Part shown: one piece after another, positions 38,765-39,538 of the stretch
Position numbering within the stretch: position 1 is the first letter of the stretch
Layout: each line of letters opens with the position of its first letter
Virus record (IMG/VR): IMGVR_UViG_3300045988_171436
Location: 1-54,996 of that record
Origin: a virus
Lineage: Duplodnaviria > Heunggongvirae > Uroviricota > Caudoviricetes
Strand: one strand, 5' to 3'
DNA: 54,996 nt
Translations under genes and position numbers: made by a program
The notes under the pieces: generated by a model
Told to the model about the DNA's origin: nothing
Database searches by the model: none
Seen by the model: only the letters and a program-made list of their open reading frames with translations

Positions 38765-39538
38765 TCAAAAATTAGGTGAGTAACGGACCGGGGACATAGC
38801 TCCTTTTTTTCTTAATTCATCTGGTATTTTTTTCCCAAGATAAAGATTTGCTATTTCAGGTGGGGCTTCTCGACCTTCAAAACCATAGCGAGAACTTTGT
38901 GTTGCCTCAAAGTCAGGATCCTCGTCCCAGTATTTCATCGTAGGGAAATTTTCACGTGTTGATTTGAGCCATTTATCAGCAATAAAAACCCCTCGAACGA
39001 TACCCCTTACAGTGGCAAGAATGACTTCTGCTTGACTGGCGCGCGAGGCATTGATGCGCCAGCTAAATCGAACCGCATCATAAAGCTCTGAATCCTTTGC
39101 ACTTCTGTTAACGGAAATCATTAATGCTTTATGATGAAATGTTATGGTTTCGGGTTGATATGTTGCTATCAACTCTTTGACATGCGCGGCGCCGAATTCA
39201 TTGCTGCCAGCACCATTCATGATATTCGTTAACCCAGGGTAGGCATCAATAAGTGCTGCTTCAACTTCGTACGCCGTCTTTTCATCAGTCATTCCATGTC
39301 GATGGATTACATGGATAACTTCAAGTCCCGCTAATCTTATTTCTCTGATTTGCTTTAGCTTGTTGCTCAGTAACTCGTCATCATCAGCCGCTGCCACTTC
39401 ACCGCGCATATGGGCAAATACGCGGTTACCTTTGCCTTTCCCTACATAGAAGGTGCTTCCGTCCCTAGGATCAATCAATCGGTATACATACCAGCCAAGG
39501 TGTTCAATTACTCCAGAAGGAAACTCAGTAATATCCAT
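38765..39538 (-). CDS. GIY-YIG nuclease domain protein (about 257 aa)
   Basis: [28 protein letters not shown] = GIY-(x10)-YVG motif with downstream Arg/His; upstream part of ORF starts at TTG so the ATG at 39538 is preferred. Confidence 0.6.

Follow-up and report, generated by a model that had tools for sequence, protein, structure and literature searches.

The gene is located near the right-hand end of a thrW-integrated prophage of the myovirus type, within a low-GC cargo region. The window, i.e., the whole stretch of 54,996 nucleotides that was analysed, holds this prophage between two exact copies of a 47-nt direct repeat, and the features that frame the gene are as follows:

7-53: attL, the partner of attR, 47-nt exact direct repeat
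67-1230: tyrosine integrase
5452-6144: CI-like repressor
36445-36885: tail-fibre assembly gene (Pfam Caudo_TAP)
38765-39538, minus strand: PD-T4-3/CMoRE coding sequence, 257 aa plus stop (ORF, translation, PADLOC, PDB, phrog_5356)
41870-41916, plus strand: attR, 3' part of the thrW tRNA-Thr gene, marking the prophage's right end, 47-nt exact repeat

The same 47 nt are annotated as tRNA-Thr in other E. coli genomes, and the closest annotated genome presents a P27-family terminase, an HK97-type capsid, sheath, tube and baseplate, followed by the tail fibre. The gene lies 2.3 kb from attR, and its position in the slot between the tail-fibre assembly gene, which ends at 36885, and attR, proposed earlier in a sequence-only reading of this DNA, was confirmed. 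The same reading had described the gene as AT-rich and monocistronic. The first description holds moderately, the gene having 43.7% GC, the structural module 55% and the whole prophage 50%; the second is reasonable, as the flanks of 551 nt and 563 nt are both devoid of credible ORFs and the upstream neighbour, a 461-codon ORF (orf461), is divergent. The ORF is surrounded by no interrupted host gene and by no intron or intein, the latter point in agreement with what had been stated before.

On the minus strand, the coding sequence extends from an ATG at 39538 to a stop codon at 38765-38767 and translates into 257 aa. An alternative TTG start at 39589 gives a longer reading of 274 aa; the 257-aa start agrees with the RefSeq protein of the closest genome and with residue 1 of both crystallised homologues discussed below. 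The Pfam model LEM-3_GIY-YIG matched residues 28-110 of the 257-aa protein with 54 bits (E 2.4e-14), twice the cut-off of 27 bits, so the GIY-YIG signature noticed earlier is genuine and the motif is not a chance resemblance; the generic GIY-YIG Pfam model remained sub-threshold. The protein comprises two parts, with residue positions taken from the translation and residue roles from the structural study of CMoRE (PMC12923530):

39194-39538, minus strand: N-terminal GIY-YIG domain with Y17, Y19, Y31, R39 and D52-D53-D54-E55 (Pfam, translation)
38768-39178, minus strand: C-terminal modification-sensing domain, residues 121-257 with an approximate boundary, including Y127 (gap-free to 9U75 and 9U7U)

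An Acyl_transf_3 gene resembling O-antigen acetyltransferases (37146-38213, minus strand, 32% GC) lies on the downstream side and is likely a serotype-converting (lysogenic conversion) gene. At both of the other PD-T4-3 loci that were inspected (L002 and L148, O157-type or related), its place is taken by the invertase gene pinE, which the PD-T4-3 gene directly follows. The next approximately 490 nt (38214-38704) are non-coding, contain short overlapping ORFs and end in a G9 run just before the hairpin described below (GGGGGGGGGCCGGCGGAGTTGAAACC); this segment may be what is left of a decayed gene. The GGCGG-AGTTGA lead-in is common to other prophages that carry the hairpin.

Relation of the protein to PD-T4-3/CMoRE

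To PADLOC, the protein is PD-T4-3 (PDLC04031), with an E-value of 3.3e-140 and residues 1-256 of 257 aligned to profile positions 1-255 of 256, and phrog_5356 was matched along its full length. A PDB search returned two gap-free alignments over 257 residues, with 9U75 from E. coli O157:H7 (E 3.7e-172) and 9U7U from E. coli APEC O1 (E 3.9e-150). The original source of PD-T4-3 was E. coli ECOR68, in a functional selection of 2022, where the system is named in the figures only and the text speaks of "a GIY-YIG nuclease" (PMC9519451); a paper of 2026 renamed it CMoRE and reported the structures 9U75/9U8D (O157:H7) and 9U7U/9U7Z (APEC O1) (PMC12923530). The guess of the sequence-only reading that this slot holds an anti-phage gene is supported by the full-length PADLOC match and by the 253 of 257 residues shared with 9U75. 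The C-terminal domain, for which that reading suggested an HMM or structure search, was matched by no Pfam or NCBIfam model and aligned without gaps to both 9U75 and 9U7U; NCBIfam likewise provided no model for the GIY-YIG protein as a whole, orf461 or the acyltransferase.

Identity with the crystallised O157:H7 CMoRE (9U75) amounts to 98.4%, and relative to an O157-type genomic copy four substitutions were found (E55D, A164V, Q169K and N197H), all conservative or of a surface type and all avoiding the residues named in PMC12923530. Residue 55 is acidic in either case: the acidic stretch reads DDDE in the window and in the APEC O1 protein, and DDDD in the O157:H7 protein. The N-terminal domain is identical to that of 9U75 except for E55D, and the catalytic Glu is therefore necessarily conserved; the C-terminal domain differs at three positions. 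The translation contains Y17, Y19, Y31 and R39 at the published numbering of the GIYxY-YIG motif, as well as V92, L96, Y127 and the acidic run D52-D53-D54-E55. The protein is encoded by a single gene, as the neighbouring Acyl_transf_3 and 461-aa proteins lack methyltransferase domains. All sequence-level features that define CMoRE are present, and the likeness to the O157:H7 and APEC O1 loci includes colinearity over 257 residues, the single-gene arrangement and a conserved upstream region (197 nt before the ATG, approximately 96% identical to the O157-type locus).

The properties of CMoRE have been described in detail. On its own and under native control, the gene reduces the plating of T2, T4 and T6 by approximately five orders of magnitude, and the O157:H7 gene is active from its native promoter (PMC12923530). 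T4 DNA is lost genome-wide with host DNA untouched, and T4(C), which contains plain cytosine, escapes (PMC12923530). With Mg2+ or Mn2+ the purified enzyme cuts DNA containing 5hmC or glucosyl-5hmC and spares C and 5mC; a pair of modified cytosines frames the cut (CN11/N9G), which produces 3' overhangs of 2 nt (PMC12923530). Cleavage of 5hmC/5ghmC DNA and phage restriction were demonstrated for the O157:H7, APEC O1 and Klebsiella proteins (PMC12923530). [quoted passage not shown] A loop of 15 residues, among them four acidic ones in a row, sits over the active site, and the 4A loop mutant cuts ordinary DNA and is toxic (PMC12923530). [quoted passage not shown] In a clinical E. coli isolate, deletion of the native gene conferred sensitivity to Tevenvirinae, and some T-even relatives escape the system at its native level (bioRxiv 2024.12.20.629700). 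Both in vivo and in vitro, a Capnocytophaga homologue likewise acts as a modification-dependent nuclease (PMC12366544).

Because of the 98.4% identity and the presence of the named residues, the CMoRE mechanism was transferred to the window's copy. The gene is almost certainly an ordinary copy of PD-T4-3/CMoRE, a modification-dependent restriction enzyme directed against T-even phages, with a mechanism that we infer from near-identical proteins; by the same route it would be expected to cleave 5hmC/5ghmC DNA and to restrict T2, T4 and T6. The protein would assemble as a tetramer (dimer of dimers) and bind DNA with 5-hydroxymethylcytosine or glucosyl-5hmC through its C-terminal domain, and the GIY-YIG domain, supplied with Mg2+ or Mn2+, would cleave each strand at a set distance between two modified cytosines (CN11/N9G) and produce 3' overhangs of 2 nt. 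The loop of four acidic residues over the active site would keep the enzyme off ordinary and 5mC DNA, and this autoinhibition would spare host and resident prophage DNA in the absence of any methyltransferase. Incoming T-even DNA would be degraded early and the cell would survive, a course that would constitute direct defence and not abortive infection.

The four substitutions might instead confer an altered modified-base specificity or a dead enzyme. Three of them (A164V, Q169K and N197H) fall in the C-terminal sensing domain, and the family shows plasticity, e.g., the Capnocytophaga homologue additionally cuts Mu DNA with modified adenine (PMC12366544), and E. coli CMoRE is only weakly active on phages with arabinosyl-hmC (PMC12923530). 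However, the named functional residues are all intact, and the more divergent APEC O1 protein, whose fold and ligand site are unchanged, is active against the same phages, though more weakly from its native promoter (PMC12923530). The exact 257-aa sequence occurs on at least 1000 contigs, which makes a dead allele unlikely, and a functionally altered or inactive copy is on the whole very improbable. Of 5426 complete E. coli genomes, 857 have the gene in their annotation, nearly always at 95% identity or more. It occurs in prophages and IMG/VR contigs and was absent from INPHARED isolates; deposited phage genomes yielded just one 36-nt match to the gene region.

Even less credit can be given to an abortive-infection toxin, or to a UvrC/Cho-like repair nuclease, that lies in the prophage by chance, and both proposals are largely refuted. 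Carrier cultures of CMoRE survive and grow normally at an MOI above 1, and hence the system acts by direct defence, not by abortive infection (PMC12923530). As to repair, the UVR, RNase H-like and HhH domains of UvrC were not found by Pfam, and the gene is a mobile prophage cargo that is not part of a conserved chromosomal repair locus. Homology to a UvrC/Cho-like repair nuclease with chromosomal synteny had been set beforehand, by the sequence-only reading, as evidence that would count against it; Pfam and the locus contexts revealed no sign of either. Membership in the UvrC/Cho group is likewise rejected for a protein of only 257 aa with no extra domains, whose prophage-end locus varies between strains.

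Among type IV enzymes that act on hmC, the PvuRts1I family, GmrSD, McrBC and McrA (of prophage e14) share with CMoRE the logic of a separate sensor and nuclease with no methyltransferase; they also target T-even phages and in some cases are prophage-borne. We take McrA of e14 to occupy an analogous end-of-prophage slot near pin. The catalytic folds of these relatives are PD-(D/E)xK, HNH or DUF262/DUF1524, whereas that of CMoRE is GIY-YIG, and the sensor domains are unrelated. Unlike McrBC and McrA, CMoRE ignores 5mC (PMC12923530).

The GIY-YIG catalytic core is common to CMoRE, I-TevI, the Seg proteins, Eco29kI and Hpy188I; the extra tyrosine (GIYxY) and the inserted acidic autoinhibitory loop are specific to CMoRE. 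Unlike I-TevI and Seg, CMoRE has no intron or intein context and no NUMOD-type or zinc-finger modules, and assignment of the window's protein to these homing endonucleases was rejected. Such enzymes carry sequence-tolerant C-terminal DNA-binding modules (NUMOD, IENR1, zinc finger or HTH) and reside in introns or between conserved lytic-phage genes, whereas Pfam gives LEM-3_GIY-YIG only for this protein and the gene is prophage cargo by attR. Unlike Eco29kI and Hpy188I, CMoRE has no partner methyltransferase; the type II GIY-YIG enzymes were rejected for a cargo region in which Pfam and PADLOC revealed no methyltransferase. At locus L002 the PD-T4-3 gene does have a methyltransferase beside it, together with a type II enzyme, but these two form a separate pair.

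For annotation, the result implies that the window bears an intact restriction enzyme, probably in active form, that depends on DNA modification and is directed against T-even phages. Carriage of PD-T4-3/CMoRE bears on host range in phage therapy and on the growth of hmC-containing phages on this strain. PD-T4-3/CMoRE is already characterised and crystallised; the gene itself holds nothing new and its copy here adds nothing to knowledge of CMoRE, so the possible value of the locus lies in its surroundings.

The hairpin bracketing the cassette

Three features were recognised in the non-coding sequence on either side of the gene, two of them repeats and one a possible promoter:

38706-38741, minus strand: left cassette junction, formed by hairpin hp1, which starts 24 nt past the stop codon (repeat, fold, homology start)
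39571-39599, minus strand: possible sigma-70 promoter (TTGTGA, a 17-nt spacer and TAATAT), 32 nt ahead of the ATG (by-eye match)
39727-39826, minus strand: right cassette junction, composed of hairpin hp2 (39727-39762), 189 nt before the ATG, and its conserved tail of some 65 nt

The hairpins hp1 and hp2 are imperfect 36-nt copies in direct orientation whose cores match ACGTNGTATGCAANAACGTGCT, with a chance expectation of 0.01 for the core match in the window. Homology with other E. coli loci starts at 38704 and stops at 39735 or 39748, both inside hp2, or at 39917. The 20-nt core was detected in at least 120 IMG/VR contigs and in 20 stretches of species-representative genomes, with the whole element in Escherichia and Shigella and mostly bare 20-mer matches in other phyla. 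At most loci the hairpin begins 12 nt past the stop codon of a pin-type invertase and is followed by the conserved tail of approximately 65 nt.

An alignment of 59 distinct copies revealed three outer-stem pairs that change on both sides, a pattern that collapses in slid controls. Read on the minus strand, the stems of the 59 hairpins contain 28 G-U pairs and 9 mismatches; the plus-strand reading gives 3 and 34, respectively. UUUCAUU or a similar sequence usually lies 3' of the minus-strand stem, and the pattern agrees with a terminator that serves leftward genes, PD-T4-3 among them. Leftward cargo genes stop 25-50 nt short of the hairpin, and hp1 is a probable terminator of the gene. The gene would then be expressed alone from its own upstream region, with termination at the hairpin 24 nt past the stop, and this arrangement is probable for the window's copy. 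A consensus promoter and terminator scan around the gene yielded nothing convincing, the by-eye promoter lying below the scan threshold; since neither a consensus promoter nor a canonical intrinsic terminator was found by the scan, we infer expression in the lysogen.

A search of 36500-43000 against Rfam at E up to 1 returned no match, so the hairpin with its tail is not a curated RNA family, and a literature search with the hairpin core sequence found no paper. Three further ideas on the element were discarded. A second stem in the tail, GGCTGG/CCAGCC (columns 54-60 with 93-99), left RNAalifold silent and has about as many mismatches as wobbles on both strands; one of its pairs covaries clearly, from G-C to A-U in 18 sequences. 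The tail is not a coding sequence, as 1-nt indels are tolerated. A pin/gin/hin crossover site was rejected by eye for lack of 26-bp half-sites of the hix/gix type.

The cargo between hairpins differs from locus to locus:

L002 (hairpins at 6013 and 10184): PD-T4-3 and a type II restriction-modification pair
L042: a 334-aa ClpP-like protease-related protein
L049: PD-T4-3 alone
L056: a DUF2971/PDC-S31-like protein and a DUF4236 protein

In addition, a 936-aa SIR2/ThsA-like protein adjoins a single copy of the hairpin at L092. The bracketing could itself be the work of the gene, if its product were a self-mobilising GIY-YIG homing-type endonuclease that cuts near the hairpin in cassette-free prophages and has its cassette copied in by repair. 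Free-standing GIY-YIG homing endonucleases occur in phages, and both the two 36-nt hairpin copies around the gene and the homology with other loci, which starts and stops in or at hairpins, are what such a course would leave. Against it, the same hairpins flank cassettes without such a nuclease (L042, L056), so the bracketing belongs to the slot and not to this gene. Moreover, NUMOD, IENR1 and zinc-finger DNA-binding modules are absent from the protein (Pfam), which is 98% identical to an enzyme that cuts neither unmodified nor 5mC DNA (PMC12923530). Self-mobilisation is thus extremely improbable, and on the same grounds, i.e., no DNA-binding modules and a near-identical enzyme that spares unmodified DNA, the earlier view that the protein is unlikely to be a classical homing endonuclease holds.

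The simplest reading of the hairpin is a shared terminator that doubles as a short homology patch for cassette exchange; it could also be the site of a dedicated recombination mechanism. The prophage family with the hairpin slot is very common in enterobacteria, and the hairpin-bracketed slot could serve as a sequence signature for mining cargo, unknown defence genes included, from enterobacterial prophages.

The neighbour orf461 and the island beyond attR

The divergent neighbour orf461 encodes 461 aa at 40102-41487 on the plus strand. It had no Pfam match above threshold and no PADLOC match; a weak Pfam match to AHJR-like restriction endonucleases was seen, and its PHROG is of unknown function. 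A total of 132 full-length homologues, all annotated "hypothetical", were found in Klebsiella, Pseudomonas, Aeromonas, Pantoea and Stenotrophomonas, and among several gammaproteobacterial genera its identity ranges from 53 to 99%; it was present in 42 of 5426 E. coli genomes. Invariant P162-D163 and E176-C177-K178 resemble the PD-(D/E)xK motif. Foldseek with the AlphaFold model (pLDDT 83) yielded a local match of 52-57 columns to the core of the archaeal Hjc resolvase and no global match in the PDB. In P. aeruginosa, a homologue forms part of an integrase-borne island, with Lamassu-type genes on one side of it and an AbiTii protein on the other.

These observations make orf461 a candidate for an undescribed defence nuclease, and a concrete one to test. 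That the hairpin is the handle of an exchangeable cargo slot and, separately, that this 461-aa neighbour is an undescribed single-gene defence nuclease are proposals we put forward tentatively, judging them rather more likely to fail than to hold.

To the right of attR, an IS3-family transposase fragment is followed by further genes:

43832-45190, minus strand: 452-aa ORF without Pfam, NCBIfam or PADLOC match
45809-46807, minus strand: 332-aa ORF without Pfam, NCBIfam or PADLOC match
47158-50373, minus strand: HamB of Hachiman, 1071 aa (PADLOC E 0)
50333-51172, minus strand: HamA of Hachiman, 279 aa (PADLOC E 3e-105)
51473-52837, plus strand: protein with an AbiJ N-terminal domain

The complete Hachiman system and the AbiJ-domain protein past attR indicate that the thrW site holds a second defence island beside the prophage. 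The 452- and 332-aa ORFs lie in a stretch of 29-35% GC between the IS3-family fragment and Hachiman and may represent further uncharacterised cargo of the island.

Two additional insertions were noted inside the prophage. A second low-GC island (12423-13822, minus strand, 36-38% GC) encodes a DUF6731 protein of 310 aa and a 150-aa protein without a family, on the strand opposite to their neighbours; PADLOC returned no match for it, and it has the appearance of a further moron. The tail module, too, contains a small insert, a 148-aa OB-fold (tRNA_anti-like) gene at 29985-30431 on the minus strand that separates the tape-measure gene from the tail gene after it; the latter is annotated as a DNA circularization protein at locus L001.
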